A DNA stretch of 39,536 nucleotides from Dimargaris cristalligena (taxonomy: Eukaryota), in the NCBI GenBank assembly GCA_003614675.1, contig ML002350.1, positions 1-39,536 on the forward strand. Direction: 5' to 3'. The notes under the pieces were generated by a model. It did not search any database, was not told the origin of the DNA, and was given only the letters and a program-made list of their open reading frames with translations. Both the position numbers and the translations under genes were made by a program. Every line of letters starts with the position of its first letter. The stretch's first letter is position 1. Below, in pieces: positions 9,851-30,800 of this stretch.

Positions 9851-12800
9851 AAGGATGCGCCTAATAGAGTTCTCCGGAATGAATAAGCCCATGGAAGATT
9901 CCGAACGATCAGTAGGAGAGATTTTTGTTGACTGTGCCCGGCAGTATCCCGATCATACTGCCGTGATTCACGGTGGTGATGAATGGACCTACCACCAGTT
10001 AGACCGGTGTAGTTCGGAACTCGCGTATATCCTCGTTAATCAATACGGGGCCAAACCCGAAAGCCGCTTTGCAATCATTATTAGTAAATCCGTCTACTTC
10101 ATAGTCGCCCTGCTGGCGATGTTTAAATCGGGGGCTGCATATGTCCCCATCGACCCAGAATATCCTGATGACCGTATTCGGTTTATTTTAGATGACTGCG
10201 ACGCCTCCCTTATTCTAACCACATTGGCCAATTATGATTGTTTTACCACTGAATTGTCACTGCCTTACTTTCAGATTGACTCCGTCGTCAACAAACAGCC
10301 ACAGACCACGACTGCCCCATTTTTTATACAATCTACAGATCTGCGTGCCTTGGCCTATATCCTATATACTTCGGGCACCACTGGTCGGCCTAAAGGCGTG
10401 CTGATACAGCAGGGGGGGGTGGCCAACGTAGCTACTGAGCCTCACCTGCGGGAGGCATACGGGCCCGGTAACCGGGTCATCCAGTTCATGTCCGTGTCCT
10501 TTGATGGCATTCTCATCGACACTTTACGTACGCTTTGCGCCGGTGGTACCGTCATTATACCCACTCTCGATATTATAGGAGATCTGCGTACAGTTCACGC
10601 CGGGCTACTTATGCCCTCATTTATATCCCGGCTGGATCCCCATGACTTCCCCCAATTTCGAGTCGTCTTTGCCGGGGGCGAATTTTTCCCTCCTGAACTC
10701 CAAACCCGATGGGCCTCCCACTGTACTCTAGTCAATATCTACGGGCCGACGGAAACGACGATTTACAGCCACCTAACAGTGATCCATCCCGAGGACCACG
10801 TTTCAATCGGGCGTCCAATCCGGAACACCTTCAGCTTAGTGGTTGACGAGCAGCTCCAGTTGGTTCCCGTTGGCGTCACCGGGGAACTACTAATCGGCGG
10901 GGTTGGGATAGCACGCGGGTACCAGAACCTACCGGAATTGACCGCCGCCAAATTCATCCCCAACCCCCACGGACCTGGGCGAGTGTTCCGTACCGGCGAC
11001 CATGTCCGGTGGCTATCCGATGGCCGAATCGAGTTTATCGGGCGTATGGATAATTTGGTGAAGTTGCGCGGGTACCGAATCGAGCTCGAGGAAATTGAAT
11101 CAGTAGCCAATCGCTTCCCTGGTCTCAACCACTGTGTGGCTGCCGTGGTGCACGATACCCTAGTGATTTTCGTCAGTCCCGTGAATGTGGACTCTAACGC
11201 ACTTTTGGAGTACATGAGCAACCGCCTCGCCAGACAAATGGTACCTGAGCTGGTGGTTCCTGTGAAAGACTTCAAAACAGCACCTAGCGGTAAATTGGAC
11301 CGCAAAGCCCTACCCTCGGTAGACCATCTCTTGCACCCAGGACCTTCTCCAAGTTTGAATAATACCCAGACTCTTACCCTAAAGTCGGAAGCTGAACAAG
11401 TCCTCGGCAGGGCCTGGGCCCAACTACTTCAGGTGGATATCAATCAAATCTGCGCTTCTGACCATTTTTTCCGGGTTGGTGGGGATTCAATTTCGGCAAT
11501 TTTATTGGTGTCAAAGTGTCAGCAGCTGGGCTATCATCTAACCGTACCACTGGTCTACCAATACCCGGAACTTCATAAAATGGCTGACCATACCGCAAAG
11601 ATCTCCAAGGCTAAAGATAGCGTAACAATAGCTTACCAAACACAAGTCCATGGTGAGGTCAACTTAACCCCTATTCAGCATTGGTTCCTTGGTCTGCCTT
11701 TACACAATCACCACCATTTTAACCAGTCGTTTATGCTTAAAGTCAATTCGCAGTCAAATGTAACCCAGTCCAGTTTAACGGGCGCCCTCGTTGCCTTGAT
11801 TAACCACCATGACACTCTGCGGGTGCGGTTTCAATTGGATGGGAGTAAAAGGGTATGGACTCAGGAAATATCGGCAACTAACGCAGTCTCGACCGACTTT
11901 CAGATTGTGGAGGAAACTGTGGGCATTGTCGACTACCCATCCTTAATTCTTCAAATCCAATCTGGCCTGAATCTCACTACAGGGCCCGTGCTAGCGGCTG
12001 CCCTCATTCACGACCCAGTAGATAGCAGTTCCACCCGCCTTTTCCTTACTATTCACCATGCCCTGGTGGACCTTGTAGGTTGGCGCATACTAATTGAGGA
12101 CCTCAACACTCTACTCGGCCAGAAAGAACTCCCGCCCAAGACGTTATCTTTCCAGGCCTGGGCTACCCAATTGAACGACTACGCCACAGCCCTTTCTGCC
12201 GACATCTGGCCCCAACAGGTGGACCCAGCGACTCCCATATCCAATATCAGAAAGCTATTGCCCCCGCCCGAGATATCCGTCTCGGATACCCAGATTGCTC
12301 GCTTATCGGTATCCTTTGAATTTGACTGGGATTTTACCAACTCCCTCCTCTTTCAGCTCGCTCCGCAGTGGCACGTTACCCCACGTGATCTACTCTTGGC
12401 GACATTCACACAGTCGTTTGCCACTGTAGTTGGTCTATCTCAAGTCACTCTATGTATGGAGGGCCATGGCCGCGAGCCCTGGTCCCCAGACCAAGATATA
12501 ACCCGTACTGTGGGATGGTTTACCGCTCTTTATCCTCTTGTACTTCGTATTCAGCCGGGCCAGTCCCTGTACGACCTATTACGCCATACTAAAGAGGCCT
12601 TGCAACAGATTCCCGGAAAAGGGTTTCCCTATGCCTTACTTAAGTACATGCCGTCAGTCCGCCCAGAGGAGCGCGCCAAACTCGAGGCCAAGACACCTGT
12701 CCAGCTAGACGTTCAATTCAATTATTTTGGGCGGTTCACCAACACAAACGGTGATTATAGTGATGGCCCTCTATCTATTGAGTGGTCGGACTTGTTCGGT

Positions 12801-15800
12801 CTACACGATTTCGCTCCAAATGACCACGTGATTTACGATATCAACCCCATGCCCACATTAGTAGGTGACCAACTGCGCCTCGTTTTGGAATACAACCCGC
12901 GAGTGTATCATAGGGATATCATTGCCCAAATAATGAATGGCTGGCAGCGCAACCTTGTTGAACTCAATGACATGGCTCGGCATTCCCAGTCAATTGTGGC
13001 TGAACCGCTGTTCACTCGGTATGACTTCCCCCACCTCCAACTCTCTGAAACCGAGTTCAGTGAGATTCTTGGTACGCTCAACAGTCGAGGCATATCGTTA
13101 AACCAGGTGAGAGACCTATTGCCATGCATTGCGGTCCAGGGCGGATTATTGACCGGGTTAGAGGTGAACCCTTCGGCCTATCTTGTTCAGATGGCCTTCA
13201 AACTTACTGGTCCACTTGATTCCAAGCGTCTCCTTCAGGCCTGGGAGTCGGTCGCTAACCAACATTCCCCTTTACGCACAGTATTTATCGAGTCGTCAGC
13301 TAAACAATCCCAGGGGTTTGTCCAGGCCTTACTTCACCCATTTTCTACTAACTGGACGACTGGTGAAAAGCCTATTGATTCACTCGACCTATTTTTTGCG
13401 GATAACCACAAATATGGGTTCACCCTAAACGCCCACATGATCCGAAACTTTATCTTTCCAACAGCAGATCGTCTGGTGCATGACATTGTTTTAACCATTC
13501 ACCATTCCCTTATCGACGGCTGGTCACTGCCTCTGCTGCTTCAACAGTGGATGGACACTTACCACCATCCTCAGCTACTGGCCCCTCTCTTGCTTACATC
13601 ATTTGATGCCGTTGTTAGCCACATCCAAACGATTGATTCAACATCCGCCCAGGAATTCTGGTCTGATTTCCTGGGTAATTTTTCAAAGACGCCGGCACCG
13701 TTAATTCTTCCCCCGGGCTACAGTTCTTTTGGCTTTGACGCCTTAACAACTGATCTTAATGTGCCCAAGGTAGCGATGGCCAATCGGGCCCAATTGTTAG
13801 GGGTGACATTGTCAACCCTGCTACAGGCAACATATGCCCTTGTGCTGGGTCGCCTTATTGGTCAAGATGACGTGGTATTCGGAATGACGGTCTCTGGCCG
13901 CAACCTGAACCTATCGGGGATGGACCAAGTCATTGGCCCGCTTATCAACACTGTGCCCTTCCGAGTGCGCCTAGACCAGCCCTCTGTCAGTACCTGTTTG
14001 AAATCTATTTACCAAAACCAGGTAAACATGATCCCTTTCGAGCATACCATTTTGACCGATATTACCCGATGGGTCACATATGGCGAGCCCAGTCCTCTCT
14101 TTAATACCTCATTGGGCTTTGAGAATTTCCCAGACATCAAAACAAACTCCTATCACCAGCTGTCAATATCCGATATCCGCATCCACGAATTTACGGAATA
14201 CCCTCTCACCGTCAATTTTATTGACCAACCCAGTGGAATTCAAGTTAAAGTATTTTACAATACGGCCATGTATTCAAATTCAGCCATTCAGCAGTTAGTT
14301 AACATGCTCCAAACCGTCCTAGAACAAATATTAAACGCCGATCACGAAGTATCTATTGACCAGATCTCACTCTCTCCGGTATCAGCATCCCTTTCGTCCA
14401 CACCTAGATACTCGAATTCTACGGGAGCCACCATTACAACCGGTTCCTTAATTCCTGATTTAAATAATGGCTCGTTCAAGAATGACCCCAACCTCTCGGT
14501 ATATATATCTAGGAACCTAACATTATCGTATGGTCAACTCAATCAGCTAACCAATTTGCTGTCATGTCAAACCACCCAAGAAACGGTACCGGACTCTATC
14601 ACAATTGTGGCCTTGCTCGAAACGCCTGACCAACTCCTGGTTTGTTTAAATACAGCAGTCAAACTAGAGGCCCAGCTACTACCACTCGATTTGGATAGCC
14701 CTATTGGCTATTTAGTAGAGTTTATTGAATTAGTAGGTGCCAATGTTGTATGGCTACCAACTGCGATGTTAGAACTGTTTTCGCCATATTTACCGATGGG
14801 CGTCCGAGTAGTTTGTTTGCCAAATCCTTCGAGTTCTCCTAACAGTACCCTACCATCGCTTCACCAATATCAACCATCGGTCGCTCCCCAAGGCCTTACC
14901 CTGTTGCTCGCCTCGGGATGGAAATTTGCTAGCCCTATAATAACCTCCGTATCAGACTCGGCTCTATTACACACTCTCTCCTCAACCCACCCGCATGTCA
15001 GTGGCCAAGGACAGTATATTGGTTTTCCTAGTCTAGCCTTAGATTGTTCACAGGCAATTTGGTTGGTACTTTCCGGTCTACGCTTGGGTTTAACCATGGT
15101 GGTACCGGATAGCCCCAAATTAACTAAAGTCAAATCGGCCCTTTGTCATATTATAATAGCGGACCTACTTCCATCATCACCCAATGGTGTCAAGAAACTT
15201 ATCCTTTGCGACCTGGGCCAAATCACCTGGTTGGACACTGACCATTTGGCCAATACTTCCCAACCCTGTCTAGCCTATAATGGGAACATTTTCATGGGGC
15301 ACTCGTTTGTAGCTAGTGGGCAGTTAGGCACCCGTAAATTACCTTCCTTTTGTAATCCCCCAGAACATGCCTCTCTGGCGATACTTGATGGTCACGGCCA
15401 GTCTTGCCCACTGGGCGTTATTGGCCAATTGGCATTCATTAATCCGCTGGGTTTTACTATACCCAAATCCAACGAGACCTCGGTTCTTGGCTACTGGGAT
15501 AAACCTGGCATAGTATCTATTATAGGATCTCATCATCAACGAGTAACAGTCCAAGGCCGCCAGGTACATCTAGGGCTAGTGGAGGAGGTTCTAAATCAAT
15601 TTGGGCTCCGGTCCCCACGAGCTTTGCTGCTCCATGGCGATCAATTGGTAGCTTTGGTGCCAAATACCTCGGAGCAGGATCTGGTTCATCTATCCTACAA
15701 AATAGCTTCCTCTACTATTCCCTCCGCCTTTGTACCCCATGTTGTAATCCCCACCGATGCTTTTCCCCATGTGGCCGAATCCACTGAACATTGCCCCAAG

Positions 15801-18800
15801 TCCTTTGCCCAAGCCTACCTCGCTGCTCTACCTTTACGATCCTCACAGATATTATCCGATACGGAGTGGTGGTTAACTGTCGTTGTGAATGAGATTTACT
15901 CCTCTCTTCAGCAGTTACCCTCCGGTTCACCAGATACAGCGCCCGTCTGGTCCACTGCAGGTTTTCCATTGTCCAAGCTTGAACTAGTTCAATTCTTGGT
16001 CCTCGAGAAATATGGGGTGGGGTTGACTCTGGGGGATTTAGTCAAATATGGCGACATCAAATTATTAGCTGACGTAATATCCAGCCAGTTGGACACCCAA
16101 ACATTCAATATCAGTGATAAGGTTGCCACCAACGATCATGGCATTTTTAATGCCGAACCCCATTCACGCAATTATGTGTACCACCAGCCCATCTCGAGCT
16201 TCCAGCAGAGTATTTGGTCCTTTGGTCGTCTAGAGCATATTCCGCGTATTTTCTACCACCAGGCAACCATTGTCTCAACCTTTCCCTTGGCGTTTACTAC
16301 AGTTCGGCAAGTTATGGCCAAAACTGTGGCCCAACATGACTCACTAAGGTCTGCTTTTCTATGCCGCAGGGGTACTGTTGGTAGTTACATTCTTCCGTCA
16401 GTCCCACTTAACATTAAGGACCACCGGGACAGGACTTTAGTAAGCGGAGCGCTCCAGGGCTCAGCGTCTGAACAAGAATTAGAGGAACCTGAATTTAACC
16501 TATCAGCGGGAATACTGGTACAGGTCGATTTTTTCCAAGCGTCAGAAATTAAAAAAGGCGGAGTACAAACCTCCATTGTAATTCGCATCCACGAGATTGC
16601 TGGCGATGCTGTTTTCTACCAAGGTTTAGTCAATGGTCTTGTTTCGATATTATCATCTGAATCTAGAGATCTGTTGCAGCATCCAACTAGCCAATCAACC
16701 AACAATATCGTGAGGAGTCGCGTAAGGGCTGGGAGTTTGCCTTCCGCGACTGCCCCGGAGCCCATGCCAAGAAAATCCAACACACCCCAGACGGTAGGGA
16801 GCATACCTATTACCCCAGTTCTACCATTGGACTATAACCGACCTTTGCTACCAACATTTCAAAATGGGATGGTCCAAGCTCAAACCAGTACAAAATTGGC
16901 TGTAGCCGTCAAGAAAATGGCCCAGGAAATCGATTGCGATGTAGGGGATTTGTGGCTGACGCTATTTGCTGCATTCCTACTGCAGATCGCTATACCGGGG
17001 GAGGTATCCGTAGAGACAAGAGTCTCGCAAACCCCATACCGCTTGGACCATCCGCATGCCTTTGATACACATTTAAACCACACACTAATCCAAGTGGATA
17101 AGAAGTCTTCAAACAGCATACACGGATTGGCCGCCCTTATAGCTGGTCAAAAGGGGGCTACTTATACGCTATCAGGTCAGCCACCTATTCCGGCAGAAAA
17201 ACAATATGGAATCTGGGCCCAAGCGGGAGTGTATCCAAGATCCCAACTGGGTTTCCAATACCAAGCACCCGGGCCACACAGCTTTACGAGTAATCTAATG
17301 ATTCACAATGACGTCCCACTGAACACTGTCTTTGTCCATGATATAGTTTGTTTTATCGCTAAAGGAGCCGACCTTTTTGAATGCTCAGTAAGATTTAATA
17401 TGGACGTATACCTTGAGGATACCATCAGTCGAATGCTACATAATTTTCTGTATTTTTCCTACCAGGCCATTCAATTGGGTTCGAATTTGAATAACGTTCC
17501 TTTGGTCTGTGAAAGAGAGGAACGCGTCCTTCTTCAAGATTTTGCAAAGGTCTGCGAATCAACCTCTCCGACTAAACAAAGTACACCGAGTGTATTGGAT
17601 AGTTTTCACCAGGCTGCCCAGAATTATTCCAATCAAACCGCCATCGATGTATTGGGGACGACACTAACATACTCGTCACTTTTATCTCGCATAGATATCG
17701 TTGCGGAACTTCTTCAACAGACTAATGTCGGAGTCGGGGATGTCGTTGGTGTTACCGTATCAAACCACCCTAATACTGTCATCGCAATGCTGGCGGTATG
17801 GAAAATTGGCGCAATTTATGTGCCAGTCGACGCAAAGCTACCCAAGAATCGTCAAAATCTTATAATCGAAGAAGCCAATTGTGTAGCCATACTAAATACA
17901 ACCAAATCGTTGGCGGAAGGGCCCAGTGTTACCAGTACGCATGCTATGAATCTGCCAATCAGCCAGGGCGCCTCTGCTACATCAAACAATGGCACACTAT
18001 CAGACAACTTGGCCTATATCGTTTTTACCTCAGGAACCACCGGTAAACCAAAGGGTGTCATGGTTACCCACCACAGTCTGAACCATATTATAAATAACCC
18101 TGAATTCCATGACTTTCAGAAGCCGTACCAACGAGTTTTGGTGGGCGTAGCTCCTGGGTTCGACGTGTTTTTCCTCAACACTCTTCTTCCACTGTGCCAC
18201 GGATCAACCTTAGTATTCTATGGCGAAGATATAACCAAAACGCTAGCCACAGTCGACCAAGTATTCCTTGTACCATCAGTCCTCAGGATTCTTAGCCCAA
18301 CCGACTACCCGAATCTCCAGCAAATCTACTTGGCTGGTGAGCCTGTGAGTCGTGACCTGGCTGACAGGTGGCTAGCTACGGCTACGGTTACAATCTACAA
18401 CGGCTATGGACCTACAGAAACGGCCATCATTAGTCACATGACCAAAATCCCTCCTACTGGGCCTGTTCCCATCGGTCGACCTGTAACTGGTTACGAATGC
18501 TACATCCTCAACCCGAATTTACGGCTCGTTCCCATTGGGGCCGTCGGCGAAATCTACATTGGCGGCATTGGTGTCAGTAAGGGCTACATCAACCGCATCG
18601 ATCTGAATCCTATCAAGTTTATTGATAACCACTTCACGGGAAAGGGGAAATTGTACCGTACCAACGATCTAGGCCGCTGGTTAACAAACGGCCAGGTTGA
18701 ATATTTAGGGCGAATAGGTAGCCAGGTCAAGCTCCGGGGATTTCGTATTGAACTGGAGGAAATTCGGAGTGTTTTGATAGGCCAAAGCGGAGTTCACGAC

Positions 18801-21800
18801 AGCGTCGTATTTATCCACAACCAGCAGCTAATCGCGTACGTTTTTCCCGAAACCGCAGCCGATGAAGACCGCCTACAAAACATTTTGAGTGATCACTTAC
18901 CAACCTATATGGTGCCTAGCTATATCTTAGGTCTTCCCCAGGTCCCATTGACCAGGAACGATAAATGTGATATCCAGTTCCTTCGAGCCCATTTCATTGA
19001 ACACTTTAATTCCCAGCAAAAAGGAACCCCAACGACACTCGACGCAAACAATATCGACCCATCACTGGAAACTCTGGCTAAGGCTTTGGTGGATGTCCTC
19101 AGTCTATCCCCCGAACAAGTTAACCTGGGCCTATCCTTTTTTAAGCTCGGCGGTGACTCCATCTCGGCAATTCAGGTATCGTCAAAGTGTCGCCAACTCG
19201 GACTAACCATACCTGCCTCGGCCTTCCTTGGTCGAGGAACTTTACTAGACGTGGTCAAATTAATGAAGCCGATTTCGTCAGCCTCGGATAGGGCATTGGC
19301 ACCGGTCAGTAATTTCACCGCCTTCCCGCTTACTCCCATCCAACAATGGTTCTTTGACCAACCTTGGACTAACATTCACCACTTTAACCAGTCGTTTGTC
19401 CTAGAGCTGACTCAACCACTGGGTATCAGCCGTCTCAATTCAGCACTACTTAGTCTCATCAACCACCATGACATGTTACGCTGTCGATTTATCCGAGATA
19501 GTGCCAGGCCAAACATCCCGTGGGAACAGGCCATTATACCACCATTTACCGAGTTGCCCATACCTACCGCTGAGGTCAAGGTGCCACAGGAAGGGCTTAC
19601 AACTTGCTTTTTAGATATTCAGTCGTCTCTGAATATATCCCAAGGCCACCACCTGGCTGCAGGCCTGATCGCATTAACTGATGGAACTAGTAGTTCGATA
19701 ATTACCAATGGTACGGCCAAAGGGTCGACCCCCACTACAACCACTCGGCTGCTGTTTCTCACTATCCACCATCTAGTCGTAGATTTGGTATCTTGGTCTG
19801 TTTTACTCGAAGACCTAGTGCTGCTACTAGAGGGTCGCCAGCCTATCCCACAACATCTGTCATTTGCAACCTGGGCTACTGAGCTGACTAACCGGTTCAA
19901 TCAATCCGCGGCTGCCGAAAAAGAAACCAAACTCTGGTCCACTGAGGCATTTCCTAAGCCCTTTTTACCCCGCGTGGACTCTGATTACTTGTCATTGAAT
20001 ATCCAAGGTAATGCTCAGCACCAGATGCTTACACTACATCCTGCCTTATCCAATTCTCTACTCCAAATTGGAAAGTGCCTTAGTCAGCCGTTGGAGATTA
20101 TGCTGGCTGCATTATTCCAATCCCTATTTCTGGTGACCCAAGAATCAATGATTACGGTATTCAATGAGTCACACGGTCGTCAGCTCCTACAACCATCTGC
20201 CGATACCAGCCGTATTGTGGGTTGGTTTACGGCCCTAGTACCCTGCTGTGCCCAAGTTGGTTCTAATACAACAATCGCCGACTACCTTAAACTGGCCAAA
20301 CGTGCACTCCACCCTTCCGCCCAGCTTGACTTGACTCAGTGGCCGTACAAGAAAATGGATCATACATCCCACATGTACACCCCCTGCCATCCCTTGGATC
20401 TGGTGTTTAATTACTTTGGGAAAATAGTTGACGATGATTGTCTCACTACTAATGGGAAAGCCCCATGGGTCCCTCGACTGGACCTGACCTCCACTCTGGC
20501 CAACTGTGATGCCTCTGAAACCCGCCCCCAATTACTGGAAATACTCGGTATTCAAACAGTAACAGGCCTCCAGTTTTCCTTTCAATACTGCCCACAGGTT
20601 ATATCGTCGTCTATAATCACCGATATTATGGTCCGGTTTGAGGAATCGATTCGCAGTATAATTGGACATATATCTCAATTCCCCGAAATGGCCTACTGGG
20701 TACCCCTGGACTTCCCCCTGCTAAAGGGAAGTCAGTCAGACCTTGCCAAGATTGAAAGTGAGCTCCATGAATTGAACATAGTGTCGGCCGAAGTTGAGGA
20801 CATCTACCCCATGCTGCCGACGCAGATAGGCTTACTGGCAACTACGGCGAAGGATTCGACCAAGTACCTGGCTCATTTGACCTTTACCATTGAGGGCCTG
20901 GTTACCCTGACTCAGCTAAAAACAGCGACAGGCTCGATAGTCGCTCTTCACCCTATTATGCGGACAAAATTCTTGACAAACTGGTACAACGATTTCAATA
21001 CTGGGGCTCAAGTGACCATGAAGCCCGGACATTTTGACTTGGATTTTATCAAAGAGTGGTCTGACGTTGGGGTGGCGAATGAAGCGGGATATCTCCAGAA
21101 AATTATGGATAAGGGTTTTAACCCTGGTAGCCCACCTATCCATTTTGGGTTAAAGCAGCTTAACAAAACCAAGTTCCGTTACTATGTGACAGCCCACCAT
21201 GCCTTACTGGACGGGTGGTCGGTAGCAATATTCCTGGACCAGTTACGCCATTATATCAGTACCCCGCAGATTGGACTAATGCCCAAAGCCACTTTCAAGA
21301 CTTATATCCAGTATATTCAAGAATTGGACCATTCCGCCGCCCTGGAATTCTGGAACGAGTACCTGGGCGGTGTAAAACAGCCTACTGAGCTGCAGCTTCC
21401 TAAGGCACAAGTTACCCCTGACATCCCAAACTCCGCCACCAACTGCGTACTTCACCCCCAAGCGAATCGAATTCAGAACCTGGCCCGGCTAATGAACACC
21501 ACTCCCTATACCTTCATCAAGGCGGCATGGGCGCTTTTACTCAGTCGGTACACCGACCAAACCGACGTGATTTTCGGCAACACGGTCTCTGGAAGGGCAC
21601 TTCCTTTAGAGGGCATCGAGGAGATCGTCGGATGTCTCATCAACACATTGCCCTTCCGGGTGCAGGTGGATCCCAATCAGACTGTTAGCCAGTATATCAA
21701 TCAAATTGGTGCTGATTCTCAGCATATTACACCCTACGAATACTGTCACTTGGCGGATATTGACACCAAGCTAGTGGGGTCAATCAGTGCCAAACATATG

Positions 21801-24800
21801 TTTAATACCCTGATTGTCTATGAGAATTATCCCAGTTCACGGCTTAAGAAGTATACGCAACAAGTTACATTCAGTGACATCGTGTCGGATGTGGCCACCG
21901 AATACCCACTATCGTTGATGTTTCAAATACAAAACAATGAATTAGTTGCTACATTCAGCTGGCATACCGCTGCATTTGACGCGCCCTGTGTTGGATCTCT
22001 AATCAAGCATTTCCACTCAATTTTTAAGGCTTTGGTGTCAAAGGTCGAAACCTCGGATATGGATAGTTTAATCGGGGAGATCCCTATGTTGTCTCCCTCT
22101 GAAGTTAAATTGTTAACCGATTCCTTTGCCAGGCCCCACAGGGATATTGATTTCCAAACCTGCATTCCTGGCCTATTTAGCAACATGGCTCACCAGACAC
22201 CCACAGAGGTTGCGGTAGAACATGCTGGTGTCAAATACACATACGCCGAATTGCACACACAGGTTATACTCGCAGCCCAAGTTTTCAATTCGTTAGGCAT
22301 TAAGCCGGAAGAACCGATTGGCATAATTATTGAGCGCCTTCCAAGTACGATTGTGGCAATGCTGGCTGTCCATTTCGCGGGGGCCGCCTTTGTCCCTATT
22401 GACCCGGAGTATCCTCTGGACCGCATAAAATATATTATCGGGGACTGCAGCATCCGGTATATGTTTTCCAATGCGAAGGACCTCACCAAAGCCCGCCAGG
22501 CTACCCAAGATTGTCATATTCGACTAATTTTCCAGGAAGACCTATTCGACATGACTCTCAAAGAGGTAGGGGAGCATTCCCGGCCACTGCCTTCCATCCG
22601 GCCTAACCATTTATCACATATTCTGTACACCTCGGGTACCACGGGTAAGCCGAAGGGGGTCCAAATGGAGCATCGAGTATTGGCCAACCTAGTGCAACAG
22701 AGCGACAACGTAATGGCAGTGACTAAAGGGTTGCGGGTTATGCAGAACATGGCACTCACCTTTGATGGTGCCCTTTACGAAATCATGGGTGCCCTATGCA
22801 ATGGAGCTACTCTGGTCTTACCCACAGAACTTCTGGAAACTCTATCCCAAGTGGACATCCTTACCGCAACTCCCACTATGCTCTCGTCGATTGACCCTAC
22901 CCACTACCCTAATATCCAGAAGGTTGTGGCGGGTGGGGAAGCATTTCCCCTCCAAGTAGCCGAGCGTTGGGCCCGCCACTGCCAAGTATATAACATGTAC
23001 GGACCAACCGAATGTATTGTCAGCCATACTGTCGAGTTCAAACTGGGAGATCAAATCACGATTGGTCACCCGATTCCCAACACGGAATGTTATATTCTTG
23101 ACCGCCATCTACGCCCCATGCCGATTGGTATCCCCGGCGAGCTCTATATAGGAGGTATCTGTGTCACTCGAGGCTATGTTAATCTACCCGAACTTAACGT
23201 GGAGCGCATTCTTCCTAATCCATTTACAGGCCAAGGTTATATCTACCGCACAGGTGACATTGGTCGTTGGCACTCTAATGGAACCATCGAATATATAGCT
23301 CGGCGGGATGATCAGCTTAAAGTTCGCGGCCACCGGGTTGAGCCCCAAGAGATCGAAGCCGTTTTGCTCAATTATTCGGGAGTCGAGAGTGCCGCCGCGG
23401 TTATGTCATCCGGCAAACTTCACGGATTTGTAAGTCCCAACTTGATTTCCATCCAAGACATCAAAGCCCATCTCTCAACACATCTTCCGCATTACATGAT
23501 TCCACATACCGTTTTTGCCCTCGACGCACTACCCCAAACTATCAACGGCAAAACCGACAAACGAGCGTTGATAAGTATGCTTCCGGAGCTAACGAATAAG
23601 TACACTACGCTGACTATTACAGCTCCGCAGAGCCCCGCACAGCTGCTCCTTGTGAATGCCCTTAGCCAGACGCTGAATGTCCCTGCTGTTGAGATTGTTC
23701 TCCACCATTCATTTTTCCAATTAGGGGGTGACTCGATTTCAGCCATTCGGTTGTCTTCTATATGCCGGGATAGTGGGCTACACCTATCGATGGCTCAAAT
23801 ATTTAAGAGTACGAATATTATACAGTTGGCCGAGTTCTCTTCCCAAGAGAATATGCCCGCCAACTCAACAAAAATCGATACTCGTAATATCTACCAGCCC
23901 TTTTCTCTTCTAGAACCGACTGAATCGCCTCATGCAACGGTGGACTCCTTAGTGAAAGAAGCGGCTTATCAGTTGAAACTTAATCCGGAAGACATTACGG
24001 ATATTATGCCAACGTCAAGCTTGCAGATAGGGTTTCTCATCAACACCCTCAAAGATCCGACCGCATATATGGTCCAGCAGTCGTACATGATTACAGGCCC
24101 CCTTGACGAAGCTCGCCTTCAACGTGCTTGGCATCAAGTGGCCAAGAGACACACGACTTTAAATACCAAATTTTTCCAACCCGGTTCGCTCTCAACCCAC
24201 AGTTTCTTACAAGTGATCACTCAAGCTTGTGACATTGAGTGGTCATTCAGCCCCAGTAGAACTTGCGATGACTGGGCCGAGTTGCAACAGGCTTACCTTG
24301 CTTCAGATCGTCGCCGCGGGTTCACCTTTGACGGGCCATTACTACGGTTGGCATTTTACAAATTATCTTCCACTGATGAACAGAAGCACGAGTGTCTATT
24401 TACTTTCCACCATGCCTTACTCGACGCTTGGTCCCAAAACCAAATCATGGCGGAGTGGTCTGAGCTATACCATGGTATTGCCCTGGCGCCCTGCACTCAA
24501 TTTACGGACTATATCGCTTATCTCCGGTCCCTTGACCAATCCGAAGTTCGTCAGTATTGGGAAGCTAATCTGGACGGGGCTTTGCCTACTCCAGCCATCC
24601 AGTTTCCCGTCTACGCCACGGCTCCTCAGGGCGAATTTGGTTTATATACCTCCAAACTGTCTATTGACTCGACTGCGCTGCAGAGTTTCTGTCGCAAATA
24701 CCATATAACTCTGAATTCCCTTTTACGGAGTGTATGGGCCCTTACACTGGCCCGCTATTTAGACCCATCCGGTGAAGTGACCTTTGGCGTACTTACTTCT

Positions 24801-27800
24801 GCTCGTAATGTACCTGTCCTGGGGATCCAAAATATGGTGGGTATGTGTATCAATACCCTGCCGTTCCGGGTCAGCGTCAATTTGGAAGCGTCAATAGTCG
24901 ATTTCATACAGTTAATTCACCGCCAGTCCGGGGAACTAACCACATCTGAACAATGCCACCTTGTAGATATCCGGAGGTGGGGTAAAGTTGACACAAACGC
25001 TAGGTTATTCGACACCCTCCTTATTTTCGATAGCTTCCCGGCCTCTCTACCTAGCGTCACTGATCCCCAAATAACATTCCACCCGCAGGAGGGACATAAT
25101 TTTACGGAATATGCCTACACAATGAACTTTACCAGCGCAGGCGATGCCCTAGAATGCCATCTATTATACAAGACCCACTACTGCAGCGAGCTGTATTCCC
25201 ATTTTCTCGTTCAGTTTCTAGACCACTGCTTACGTCACATCGTCAGTGAGTCCACTTCATTGTTACTCGACGTGATGACTCTTCCGACTGACGAGGCTCA
25301 GCTGATACACCAATGGTCTCGAGGGCCAATCCAGAAGTCTCCCCAGCAGCAATGGTCAGCCTGCCAACTGTTCACGAAACACCTTTCAAATCGAGCTAAT
25401 GCGATTGCCATTGAGACTGATCAACGAGTTTATACATACAGCGACCTATACCGAGGTGCCCGCGCTATCGCCCTGTCCCTCCAGCTCCAGGGCTTTCGCC
25501 CCGACTGTTTTGCCATTCTGCTATTCGATCAATCAACGGAATTCATTATCAGCTATCTGGCTGTGCTACTTGCCGGCGGTGTATGTGTACCCATGGACGC
25601 TTCCAATTCAATTGAGCGGTTACGCTACATGGCTGAGTTATTAGACGAGCCCTGGGCTTTGACTACCATTATCCACAAGGAAAAGGCTATACAACAATTA
25701 GTAATTAGCGACGACAGGCTTATTCTAGTCGATTCTGCCCAAATCCGTGATAGAGACTCGACCGGTTTCCAACCCGATATAACCCGCACACCATCTGATC
25801 TCATGTATATTCTGTTCACATCCGGTACTACAGGCCAGCCTAAAGGAGTGCCTATTCGGCATGAATCATTCACCAATTTTATTCTTTCGTTTACCGAGAC
25901 AACAGGGATTAGCGAAGCAACTCGCCAACTCTGGACCTTAAATCTTGCCTTTGACGGATGTCTCTGTGAAATTTTCGGTCCGCTTATCATGGGTGGTACT
26001 TTGATCGTTCCCAGTGGCCCAATGGTAGACTCCCTCCACCTTGCTAATACAAGTGTCCTGATTCCGTCCCTCTTATCCGCCATCAACCCCACGGATTTCC
26101 CTAATCTGACCAAAGTCATAACGGGCACGGATGTCCTACACCCGCAGGTTGCCCAAAAGTGGAGTCCACATGTGACCATGTACAACCTGTATGGGCCCAC
26201 CGAGACCACTATTGCCTGTCACATGGATATACTCGAACCCTGTCCAATACCGACAATCGGCAAGCCCCTGGCCAATATTCAGGGCTATATCCTGAATGAC
26301 CATTTACACTGCGTACCCGTGGGCGTGGCTGGTGAGCTGTATATCGGCGGCCAAGGTATCAGTAGCGGGTATTGGAAACAACCCGAGCTCACCGCCAAGG
26401 CGTTTATCCCCAACCCGTTCGACACCGGCAAGCTGTATCGCACGGGCGATATTGTCTGTTGGTTGCCAACCGGAAAGGTCCACTTTATCACTCGTAAGGA
26501 TTACCAGGTCAAACTGCGCGGTTACCGTATCGAATTAGGTGAAGTCGAAAATACCGCCCTACTGAACGAACAGGTTACTAATGCCACGGCATGTATAACG
26601 CAGAATCAGTTAGTACTATACGTCGCCCCCGGCCACATCAATACTCCGGCCCTTCAGACCCACCTGGCCGAAAAACTTCCCCATTATATGGTTCCCAGTT
26701 TCATTATCCCATTGGACCAGATGCCCTTGACCGCGGTGGGTAAGGTTGACCGCAAAACTCTCCAGGCAAAGTCCTTACCGGCGAATAACTTTTCCGAGCA
26801 TGCTTTGGACACCAAACCTTTGACCCCGACGTTCCTTCTTATGCGGAAGGCGCTGGTTGCCACCTTAAAGGTGGACCCACAGCATGTCGTACCCGCAACA
26901 TCGTTCCTTCAATTAGGTGGCGATTCTATTTCAGCCATCCAGTTTGCCACCAAATGTAAACAATTAGGACTCCGACTCTCGGTGGCCCACATTCTGAAAT
27001 ACCCCCAATTGTTCGTTATGGAGCAGTATGCCCAACTCATAGCCATAGATAAACAATACTCCCCCGCCAGTTACTTGGACTCTGTGGGCCCCGTTCCCTT
27101 CACTGCAGTCCAACGCTACGCGCTATCCCAACATAGAAATATCAATCAATTCAACCAATCCATGCTATTGCAGTGTCGCCAGACTTTGTCTCGTGACATG
27201 GTCAGGCAGGCCATGGTGGCGTTAATCTCCCACCACGATATGCTACGTGTCCAACTAACGCTTACTGGAAACCAATGGGAACAGCGGGTTCATTCGACTC
27301 CAGCCGAGCCGTCAGCCTGGACAGATCAGTATGTCGTGATTGACGAGGCCAACATAACCCGCGGCGAATATTTGGAGTGGGTCAACCATATGCAGAAAAC
27401 TATATCCATCGTCAACGGTCCTATCTTGGGCAGTGGTTTACTGACAATAGATGACGAACAGTACCTATTTCTAACGGTTCACCACTTTGCCGTTGATTTT
27501 GTTTCCTGGCGGATTATTCTGGAAGACTTGGAAGCCCTGCTAACCGGCCAGATCCTGTTGCCCAAGACGATGCCCTTCCGGGAATGGGCAACTAAGGTTC
27601 ACACCCATGCTCAGACGCTATCTGATTTGGACTGGCCCATCGCCACCCCTACCCATAGCGACCGGATTCCCCTGGATTTCCCAACTGCGACTGCTCAGTA
27701 CGAAGTGCCCAACGTGACCTATCACTCATTTCAATCAGTACAGGCATCATTAGGACCAGCCTTATCCGAATCACTATACAGTCAAGTTGCCCCTACACTG

Positions 27801-30800
27801 GGGACCTCGGTCCAGGAATTACTGGCTGCTTCTCTCCTGATGGCGCTAAATTCTAGTTTTGGCATTGCAACCATTGAACTGGAAATGGAAGGCCATGGCC
27901 GCAGACCCTGGGATCCGGTTATTGATATATCCCGTACCGTGGGATGGTTCACATCCATCTATCCTGTTAAGTTTAGTATCGATACCAGTGATGGCTACCC
28001 ACTCCCCAGTAAGGCTCTCCGGGTCCTCGCCCATACCAAACAAAGCCTCCGATCAGTTCCTAACCACGGGTTCCCCCATAGTCTAATCCAATATTTAAGG
28101 GACACGGATTCGCTCCAATGCAATGCACAAAATAGTCGGTTGCCTGGTTCGTACGATGAATCGAGCAACTGGAACCGAGTTGTATTTAATTATTCGGGTC
28201 GGTTTGAACAGCTGGGAGCCCAAGACGCTTTTTGGAAGTCCCGCTGCATTAACCAGGGCTGGAATTATGATTTCGATCAAGATGAGCTTATGACCCGAGT
28301 CTTTAGCGCTTCAGGCGACTTTGACATTGAACAGGGTCTAATTCTTAGTATTATGTACTCTGACGAGCTACATAAGTCAGAAACTATCCGCGGTCTAGTA
28401 GACCATTGGGTAATGTACCTAGGACAAATGGCGCACCAAGTTCAACAGGGCCCTTCCCCCAGCCTTATTACGGCTACCGACTTCCCCATATCTGGGTTAA
28501 GTGAGGTGGATTTTATTCAATTCCAAGCCGACGACCTGAAACATCTACAACTAACCATAGATCAGATTGAGGATATTTACCCTTGCTTGCCGGTCCAGGA
28601 AGGGCTCCTGTTTGCGACCCTCAAAGATCCGGCTGCTTACATGGTTCAGCTCTCAGTTCTTATTGAGGGTCCGTTAGATCCGACCCTGTTCCAGTGGGTC
28701 TGGGAGCAAACGGCTCAGAGCCAAGCGACATTCCGGACCCGGTTCCTCATGGGTACTAGTCAAAGGCCCGATCTAAACCTCCAGGTCGTGGCCACTAAGT
28801 TTGGGGCGCAATGGACTACTGGCGACTGGCAGGGCCAATCTATTGAGAAAGCTGAAGCTGAATTTACTTTACACGAGCGGGAGAAAGGTTTCCCTAGACA
28901 CCGGCCTATGATCAAATTTGGCTTATTCCAACTGGCCCCCCAGAAATATAAGTACATCGTGTCGGCCCACCATGCCATTCTCGACGGCTGGTCCATTGGC
29001 CTGATGACCCAAAGCATTTTTGGCTACTATAGCGGCAAGGTGCCCCCGCCCACCATTTCGTTTAAGGAGGTGGTTACCCACATCAAGTCCCAGAGTGTCG
29101 AAAAGGCCGCCAAATTTTGGAGTAATCAATTTGAAGGAGTAGAGTCCCCCAGTTTACTCGTACAGCCGCACCACAACCCAGATTTGAGTATCCAACCCAG
29201 TGATGCTGATTACTACGGACTGATTGATCGATCCGTTCCATTAATGTCCCACATCGAAGCCTTTGCCAGGGCAACCGATACCACCTTATCAGATGTACTC
29301 CGAGCGGGAATGGCGGCGGTTCTTCAGCGGTATACGGGCGCTGACAATCCTATATTTGGCGTAGTAGTATCGGGCCGCAATCTCCCACTAGACGGTATAG
29401 AAAATATGGTGGGCGTTTGTATTAATACCATTCCCTGCCGGGTCGCCCTCGGCCCTAGTGCTGCAATTGCTGATGTCCTTCAGAAGGTTCACCAAACTAG
29501 TATTGCCACCTATGGGTTCGAACACTGCCGGCTCACAGATATCCACCAGTGGAGTGGTTTGACTCAGGAACAACCTCTATTTAACTCCCTCTTGGTCCTT
29601 GAGAACTACCCCGAAGTGGAAATGGATGCCAATTTACCGATTCGCATTGAGTATACCGATTGGTATAATCCCACCGACCTCCCCTTTTCCTTAACGGTTC
29701 ATGCCGCTGGCAACCAACTTAATGTTACAGTTAACTACCAGCGCCTTTATTTCGACCACGATTTCATGACTCAATTCATTGACCATTTCCTCAACTCGCT
29801 CCAGTCGATCATTGCGCTAGGCCCAGATGCGCTCTTCAACACTATTGAGGTACTCTCTCCCGCCGAGCATAGCCAGCTGCTCAAGGTGTGGGCTACTAAC
29901 CCCCAAGAATGCCCTTCCCACTACGCCTACGAGGGTTTCCAATGGGAAGCGTTTTGCCACCCCGACCAAACTGCTCTAATTTACAACAACCGCCGCTTTA
30001 CCTATGCCCAACTTGACCAATCCACCAACTACTTGGCCCGTCAAATGCAAGCCATGGTGAACTGCCGATTCGACGGAATTATCGGCGTGGTGGCATCCAA
30101 CTCGCTAGAACTGATTGTAGGACAGTTGGCGGTTTGGAAAACGGGCTGTGCATTTGTAGTCCTGGACCCCGACTACCCCACCGAACGTAAACACTTTATA
30201 ATCCAGGACACGCAATGTCTTGCCCTGTTAGGCCAGTTAGAATATAAGGCAGAATTCAGTGAGCAAAAAATACCATTTATTCCCATAGACGCCGGCGATT
30301 TACTTTCTGGAATAGACAGCAAAGAATTATGTCACCAGGTCGAAATATCGTCGGAATCCCTAGCTTACGTTATATACACGTCAGGCTCCACGGGTAAACC
30401 CAAGGGGGTGCTCATTGAGCATGGCGCCGTTTCCAATCTCCTCCAAGGGGTCCAACTGGTGACCTGTATCACAGCCAGCACCATCACGCCTACAATATTC
30501 ACGCCCACCTTTGACATTTCCATTTCGGAAATTTGGAATACGCTATCCTTTGGTGGTGCGGTCCTAGTTACCCATGGTGACTATGAAGCTGCCCTGAAAC
30601 AGTCAACTCGGGCCTGCTGTACTCCCTCCCTTCTCGCCCTTTTTGAACCATCGGATTTCCCCAATCTAAACCAGGTGATGCTTGGCGGCGAAGGTGTAGG
30701 TCAGAAGGTAGTGGACCGCTGGGCCCCTGTCCTGGAACTGATTAATATATATGGTCCGACGGAGGCCACCATTACCTCCCACACCGCCCCCTTAGTGGCC

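Follow-up and report, generated by a model that had tools for sequence, protein, structure and literature searches.

Module skipping, in which a synthetase passes over one of its own internal modules, is rare, poorly understood and wanted by engineers of nonribosomal peptide synthetases (NRPSs); to our knowledge, the known natural cases concern modules that are still nearly intact. It was reportedly described by Wenzel et al. in 2005 in the myxochromide S synthetase. As presented in two papers (PMC6180311, PMC12192607), the skipped unit is module 4 of MchC from Stigmatella aurantiaca, in a bacterial polyketide synthase/NRPS whose product is proven; this internal module is still recognisable as a module, its carrier domain (T) is dead, with a Pro in place of the serine (GGNPS versus GGHSL), and the next condensation domain (C) lacks its second His (HQxxxD). 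According to PMC12192607, the tex2-type peptaibol synthetases of Trichoderma, also fungal NRPSs, make 11-residue peptides from 14 modules; 11- and 14-residue products are both detected and skipping appears optional. The window considered here is a stretch of 39,536 nucleotides from Dimargaris cristalligena (assembly GCA_003614675.1, contig ML002350.1, positions 1-39,536, forward strand). It carries an NRPS gene in which one complete unit made of an adenylation domain (A), a T and a C domain, hereafter the block with its degenerate domains dA, dT and dC, has lost its catalytic motifs and is still in frame. As in MchC, an internal module with a dead carrier would be passed over (AGFPLS, again with a Pro), and the next C domain lacks the second His (HE here, HD or HQ in paralogues). 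By comparison with MchC, however, the synthetase is fungal, the whole A-T-C unit is down to 25-36% identity with paralogues, its state is family-wide in two genera and the case is known from sequence alone; by comparison with the tex2-type enzymes, skipping would be obligatory, the unit being dead. If so, this would be the obligatory skipping of a fully fossilised module, spread over a gene family of early-diverging fungi, and thus a well-defined and testable case.

Two other kinds of degenerate NRPS domain are close enough to be compared. Degenerate A domains were reportedly described by Bushley et al. in 2008 in fungal siderophore synthetases of the SidC/NPS2 type. In these enzymes too, an A domain devoid of functional core motifs stays in frame inside a fungal NRPS, but the T and C domains that follow are functional and served by another A domain, whereas both have died in the present case: neither the T serine site nor the HHxxxD of a C domain follows the dead A domain within the block in any of the 11 family sequences. 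The X domain of glycopeptide synthetases combines, according to PMC8949500, the fold of a C domain with a mutation of the HHxxxDG motif and a non-catalytic role. dC shares the fold and the mutated motif (HEIAGD, with a profile-profile match to C-type domains at 98.9% probability). The X domain, however, sits in the last module, before the thioesterase, and recruits cytochrome P450 (Oxy) enzymes (PMC8949500), whereas dC is internal to the dead module, between dT and A3, with no evident partner.

The NRPS gene is one uninterrupted open reading frame (ORF) on the forward strand (nt 9045-32927, 7960 aa; all features below lie on this strand). It encodes a multimodular NRPS with repeated Condensation (E 3e-150 and 2e-223), AMP-binding (E 3e-137 and 3e-194) and PP-binding (E 1e-19 and 4e-32) Pfam domains in a single polypeptide. 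Motif scans and hidden Markov models (HMMs) trained on the protein's own domains give the order N-terminal region (aa 1-278), A1-T1-E1, C2, a motif-free stretch of 1066 aa, A3-T3-E3, C4-A4-T4, C5-A5-T5-E5, C6-A6-T6 and a terminal C-type domain, E standing for epimerisation. Over the whole protein there are five A3 P-loops (A3 being here the core motif of that name), five NxYGPTE, five GGxS and eight HHxxxD motifs, and the own-domain HMMs return five full A, five T and eight full C/E matches. The live module 1 (nt 9879-12983) comprises A1 (aa 279-760), T1 (aa 776-857) and E1 (aa 858-1313, HHALVD), whose best solved match is the epimerisation domain of TycA (2xhg, E 1e-49). C2 (nt 13074-14360, aa 1344-1772) has an intact HHSLIDGWS; the live A3 and T3 domains (aa 2839-3317 and 3333-3413, nt 17559-19283) stand on the other side of the block and T3 is the presumed acceptor for C2. 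The original prediction called C2 intact and A3-T3 recognisable; the motif scan and the own-domain HMMs confirm that all three domains are intact.

The block spans nt 14361-17558 (aa 1773-2838) by motifs, Pfam, HMMs and profile comparison, so that the dead feature first placed at nt 14480-17470 is real but slightly larger. Its 1066 aa match the 1063 aa that separate the start of A4 from the start of A5, in agreement with the claim that exactly one A-T-C repeat is dead. It is indeed kept in frame: there is no stop in 1066 codons, whereas 2000 shuffles of the block contain 50.5 on average and at least 27 each, and the other five frames 36-78. Between aa 1773 and 2838, no A3 P-loop, NxYGPTE, GGxS or HHxxxD occurs. 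In dA (nt 14412-15830, aa 1790-2262), alignment shows the loss of the P-loop A3, of A5, of the TGD motif of A7 and of the lysine of A10; vestiges of A1, A2, A6, A8 and A9 persist, and the statement that all core motifs were lost was in this respect too strong. dT (nt 15831-16199, aa 2263-2385) reads AGFPLS at aa 2305 (nt 15957-15974), with a Pro at the serine position, and dC (nt 16200-17558, aa 2386-2838) reads HEIAGD at aa 2516 (nt 16590-16607), both as originally described; with no GGxS in the block and no PP-binding match, the carrier has no usable phosphopantetheine site, as in a skipped module.

Weak profile matches had been expected throughout the block. This holds for AMP-binding (13.4 bits for a cut-off of 29.9) and for PP-binding, which gave no match at all when the block was scanned with Pfam in pieces, but Condensation passes its cut-off (46.5 bits for 30.6). 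The own-domain A model finds two fragments only (aa 1812-1890, -2.9 bits; aa 2145-2244, 20.5 bits), the C model one weak match (5.7 bits) and the T model none; NCBIfam models on the same pieces return adenylation matches below threshold and an anti-sigma factor (E 0.03) that was judged a chance match. Profile-profile comparison (hhalign) of a block alignment of 12 family members with the live domains is far more sensitive: 413 columns of dA match live A domains (probability 99.3%, E 1.8e-20), 391 columns of dC match live C/E domains (98.9%, E 1.4e-17), and dT matches live T domains over its last 27 columns only (56.6%, E 1e-4). These comparisons identify dA and dC as decayed A and C domains at full length and leave dT recognisable in its C-terminal half. 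Among C-type profiles of unequal depth (14, 12 and 5 sequences), dC scores 95.8 as DCL-like, 77.4 as E-like and 65.1 as LCL-like in hhalign, values that do not separate the three classes. AlphaFold2, run on an alignment of eight rows, gave a block model with a mean predicted local distance difference test score of 51.9 and a predicted TM-score of 0.33; this model was used for the fold class and the start of dT helix 2 only; its best Foldseek matches are the A-PCP-C cross-module structure of DhbF (5u89, E 6e-34) and multi-domain constructs of LgrA, with TM-scores of about 0.2.

The dead module is not peculiar to this gene. An exhaustive HMMER search with the block returned 1619 proteins at E <= 0.001, of which 7 at E <= 1e-30, and the closest relatives come from D. 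cristalligena and Tieghemiomyces parasiticus, both mycoparasites of the order Dimargaritales. The same dead block, for which paralogues had been proposed as a check, is present in 12 of the 14 closest proteins examined, in every case between an A-T-E-C stretch and a live A-T; of the remaining two, P0018 is an unrelated NRPS of six modules and P0164 a fragment ending short of the site. P0162, a D. cristalligena paralogue of 7347 aa, is colinear with the window protein across all later modules. Its residues 830-1283 form the sole C-type domain between T1 and the block and correspond to C2, with no counterpart of E1; this is either a real loss or a gap in the gene model. Across 11 family sequences, C2 always has HHxxxDGWS and the block never has HHxxxD, GGxS or an A3 P-loop. 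The dC motif keeps its first His in 8/8 sequences, its second in 0/8 (E, D or Q instead) and its aspartate in 2/8. With paralogue limits set from domain matches, the block measures 1029-1066 aa in five of the nine sequences that hold it whole, and 965 aa in P0163. Since its motifs are dead family-wide across two genera, module 2 must have died before Dimargaris and Tieghemiomyces separated and before the family duplicated; that the block is old and shared by the family, as these alignments indicate, is new with respect to the original prediction. A word-index protein search with the block found only distant bacterial NRPSs (19-28% identity) and, having missed the family recovered by HMMER, is uninformative on distribution. 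Ahrendt et al. 2018 report these duplications, with 27 NRPS genes that fall into two lineage-specific expansions and show modular synteny; no description of the dead module turned up in the literature searched, although the supplements of that paper may show these architectures.

This raises the question as to how a chain started on module 1 would proceed. The gene would originally have encoded an NRPS of six modules, the first, third and fifth of them carrying an epimerase, and the block would be the fossil of the second; E domains follow T1, T3 and T5, that is, every other module only if the dead one is counted. In the present enzyme, A1 would load T1 and E1 would epimerise the T1-bound residue; C2 would then condense this D-residue onto the aminoacyl group of T3, passing over dA-dT-dC, after which modules 3 to 6 would continue and the terminal C-type domain would release the product, probably by cyclisation. 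The ancestral D-L-D-L-D-L hexapeptide would have become a D-D-L-D-L pentapeptide. The C domain upstream of the dead unit is what such a transfer calls for: C2 is as conserved as the other live C domains, with 53% identity to its counterpart in P0162. Module 1 and C2 are presumably still in use, because they are conserved with every catalytic motif, and the path from C2 to T3 would be the simplest because T3 is the only live carrier downstream, dT having no usable serine and dC no catalytic His. The best solved matches of C2 are McyB, then SrfA-C, BacC, TycB1 and PvdL-C3, the last four of which we take to be C domains sitting behind E domains; the kind of C domain thus fits a D-configured donor delivered by T1-E1. 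That C2 joins the D-residue of T1 to the residue on T3 and yields a pentapeptide, with the dead domains kept as neighbours, is to us the most probable account, held with moderate confidence. The earlier claim of module skipping stands as regards an intact C2, its conservation at the level of live C domains and the correspondence of the dead part to one unit, but its product size goes beyond these observations.

Alternating epimerases also bring to mind fungisporin (HcpA), fusahexin (NRPS4) and the "WARP" NRPSs; D/L alternation is typical of fungisporin, fusahexin and related peptides according to bioRxiv 10.64898/2026.07.13.738209 and PMC10967133. The likeness, an E domain in modules 1, 3 and 5, holds only if the dead module is counted. 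In these two sources, the ascomycete synthetases have all their modules live, an adjacent ABC transporter and, for some, iterative modules. The dead module 2 breaks the alternation here, no ABC transporter was found in the window, and the comparison is one of domain order alone.

Why has a dead module of this length persisted? The block would still be translated, since the live modules that follow it in the same frame amount to about 5100 aa; the selection to translate through it, put forward from the sequence at the outset, is thus real but follows simply from this position. The exclusion of stops and frameshifts alone, however, leaves unexplained both the kept length and the kept core positions of the A and C folds. 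In comparison with the live domains, which are 43-72% identical to P0162 overall (A1 57%, T1 72%), the block is less conserved (dA 36%, dT 31%, dC 25%), and in the global alignment its conservation is always below that of the flanking C2 and A3; between the window protein or other D. cristalligena members and Tieghemiomyces, block identity is 17-35%. Its sequence changes faster than that of the live domains around it and yet is not free-running, as it stays alignable, retains 47-55% identity between the paralogues P0162 and P0163 and has no indel in a second isolate. Most of the conserved block columns are structural positions inherited from the A and C folds, which would be expected if dA were kept as the platform partner of C2, dC as that of A3 and dT as a tether, under relaxed constraint.

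The N-terminus of the protein offers a parallel. In hhalign, a remnant just before A1 (nt 9144-9785, aa 34-247) covers positions 230-458 of the 463 in the template of live C domains (probability 94.7%, E 6e-8) and so corresponds to the C-terminal half of a C domain, the Pfam scan of the same residues giving no match. It is a second, truncated fossil domain of the NRPS protein. An N-terminus that holds only the A-proximal half of a C domain fits the notion of A domains needing a C-lobe neighbour. The fuller proposal, in which C-A platform contacts keep the dead A-T-C module folded and in frame as C2 serves a carrier about 1600 residues downstream, is tentative. If true, C2 would need an A-shaped neighbour and A3 a C-shaped one, so that these NRPS domains could not stand alone; a C domain could serve a carrier across a whole inert module, some 1600 residues away; and C-A platform contacts, rather than catalysis, could preserve about 1000 residues across two mycoparasite genera and repeated duplications. 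A nearly full-length dead unit carried by a whole gene family provides many independent copies in which to ask which parts the neighbours need, and counting A-like or C-like domains in the NRPS genes of Dimargaritales would overstate the length of their peptides.

Several points weigh against this account. We infer the C2-to-T3 transfer, the product size and the stereochemistry from sequence, and the physical reach of T3 to C2 is an assumption of the skipping model. A contig from a second isolate, taken from another study's run, differs across nt 9045-29044 by 64 substitutions and no indel, 40 of which are listed, all at or before nt 20935 and assumed to be complete to there. On this basis the block has 10 nonsynonymous and 4 synonymous changes (ratio of nonsynonymous to synonymous polymorphism, pN/pS, of 0.80; codon positions 7/3/4), against 6 and 11 in the live upstream part (0.17) and 4 and 5 in the live downstream part (0.25). 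The contrast between block (10:4) and live parts (10:16) gives p = 0.096 in Fisher's test, and a binomial test on the block rejects an omega of 0.2 (p = 0.013) but neither 0.35 nor 1, so that recent polymorphism in the block is compatible with neutrality and looks near neutral. Constraint is by these measures clearly relaxed; the long-term signal indicates that some persists, and the recent one is indecisive.

Three paralogue models also have shorter blocks (P0013, 693 aa; P0015, 643 aa; P0019, 627 aa) without most of dA or dC. If these gene models are right, the short blocks speak against a platform that every member must have; the missing parts may truly have been deleted in frame, or the models may contain predicted introns that conceal stops. 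The carrier site is not uniform either. In the window protein, three modes of MAFFT place Pro2308 at the carrier serine position, in agreement with the low-confidence model, where helix 2 starts at Leu2309, but a serine, Ser2310, follows two residues after the Pro (FPLSK); its column has A, V or L, and never Ser, in the 10 homologues. The carrier serine column itself reads T, T, T, P, S, S, S, S, Q and R in these 10, the four with Ser being P0016 and three near-identical Tieghemiomyces copies, and none has it in a GG(D/H)S context. Carrier death thus looks firm for the window protein and less firm for every paralogue, because of those four serines.

The alternatives explain parts of this evidence in other ways. 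One protein could house two lines, modules 3 to 6 starting on their own to make a tetrapeptide and module 1 with C2 making or releasing something else, for example by condensing its residue onto a free nucleophile. This would dispense with the assumed reach of T3, and dC-A3 does resemble many fungal starter modules, which have a vestigial C domain before their first A domain, just as the N-terminus of the window protein does. But no family member that covers module 1, E1 and C2 has them detached from the later modules, purifying selection acts on all three, the best solved matches of C2 mark it as an ordinary C domain of the elongation type, and it is not followed by a release domain; two separate lines are improbable. 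Neither do we give much credence to a non-catalytic function gained by the block itself, whether in oligomerisation or as a platform on which partners dock or are recruited, in the manner of the glycopeptide X domain, a dead C domain that brings in P450s (PMC8949500). P0162 and P0163, both from D. cristalligena, are about as similar in the block as in C2 (identities of 52% for dA, 47% for dT and 55% for dC, against 55%), and some invariant positions that are not ancestral motifs (for instance F-A-x-A-Y-L and W-W-L near aa 2255-2280) are what a new role might leave. Against this, the recent changes in the block are mostly nonsynonymous, large parts of it are absent from the three short paralogue models, most of the conserved columns sit at ancestral structural positions, and no tailoring enzyme gene was recognised in the window.

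A silent or decaying gene, or a block spliced out of the messenger RNA, would agree with the lower GC content at third codon positions in the block (0.447, against 0.52-0.54), but is very unlikely: the frame is open over 7960 codons and free of indels over nt 9045-29044 in the second isolate, the pN/pS of the live domains is 0.17-0.25, and the block retains in-frame protein similarity across two genera, unlike an intron. Modules with a degenerate A domain and live T and C domains do exist in siderophore synthetases. Least credible of all is a hexapeptide made through a dT still working via Ser2310, with its residue supplied by an A domain next to it or in trans in the siderophore manner. In its favour, an ungapped alignment of helix 2 by eye puts Ser2310 on the carrier serine. 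This residue, however, occurs in none of the 10 homologues, MAFFT in its three modes and the helix start of the model put Pro2308 there instead, the N-terminal half of dT goes unrecognised by every profile used, and the catalytic His of dC is missing in all eight sequences compared.

For C2-to-T3 skipping, the remaining element is the release step. Downstream of T3, nt 19317-32918 encode E3, C4, A4-T4, C5, A5-T5-E5, C6, A6-T6 and the terminal E-like C-type domain (motifs and HMMs). The latter (nt 31605-32918, aa 7521-7958, HHLVFD) has E domains as its best solved matches (PvdL E2, E 3e-26; TycA, E 1e-18), and the fungal cyclisation domain of TqaA is not among its structure matches. It reads FNGHGRD where E1 and E5 read EGHGR, with an N for the glutamate of the E-domain motif EGHGRE. 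It is probably a repurposed release domain. No further NRPS-related domain was seen in the flanks, and neither a transporter gene nor a tailoring gene could be recognised next to the NRPS gene.

Downstream, an open frame of 1460 aa (nt 35155-39534, forward strand) runs off the 3' end of the window; it has a FUSC_2/ALMT-like membrane match near residues 1258-1351 (E 2e-10), its first 1250 residues being without family match. Upstream, nt 1-2000 are AT-rich (GC 0.335, versus 0.42-0.55 elsewhere), and the roughly 4.4 kb that precede the NRPS start (nt 4600-9000) have no ORF above 103 aa. Within the gene, between nt 18937 and 27657, remote positions such as 19175 and 27141, or 18937 and 26922, are linked by short contigs whose sides, only 21-26 letters long, lie at conserved motifs of T and E domains; the likeliest cause is that assembly cross-linked repeated modules or paralogues, rather than real deletions.

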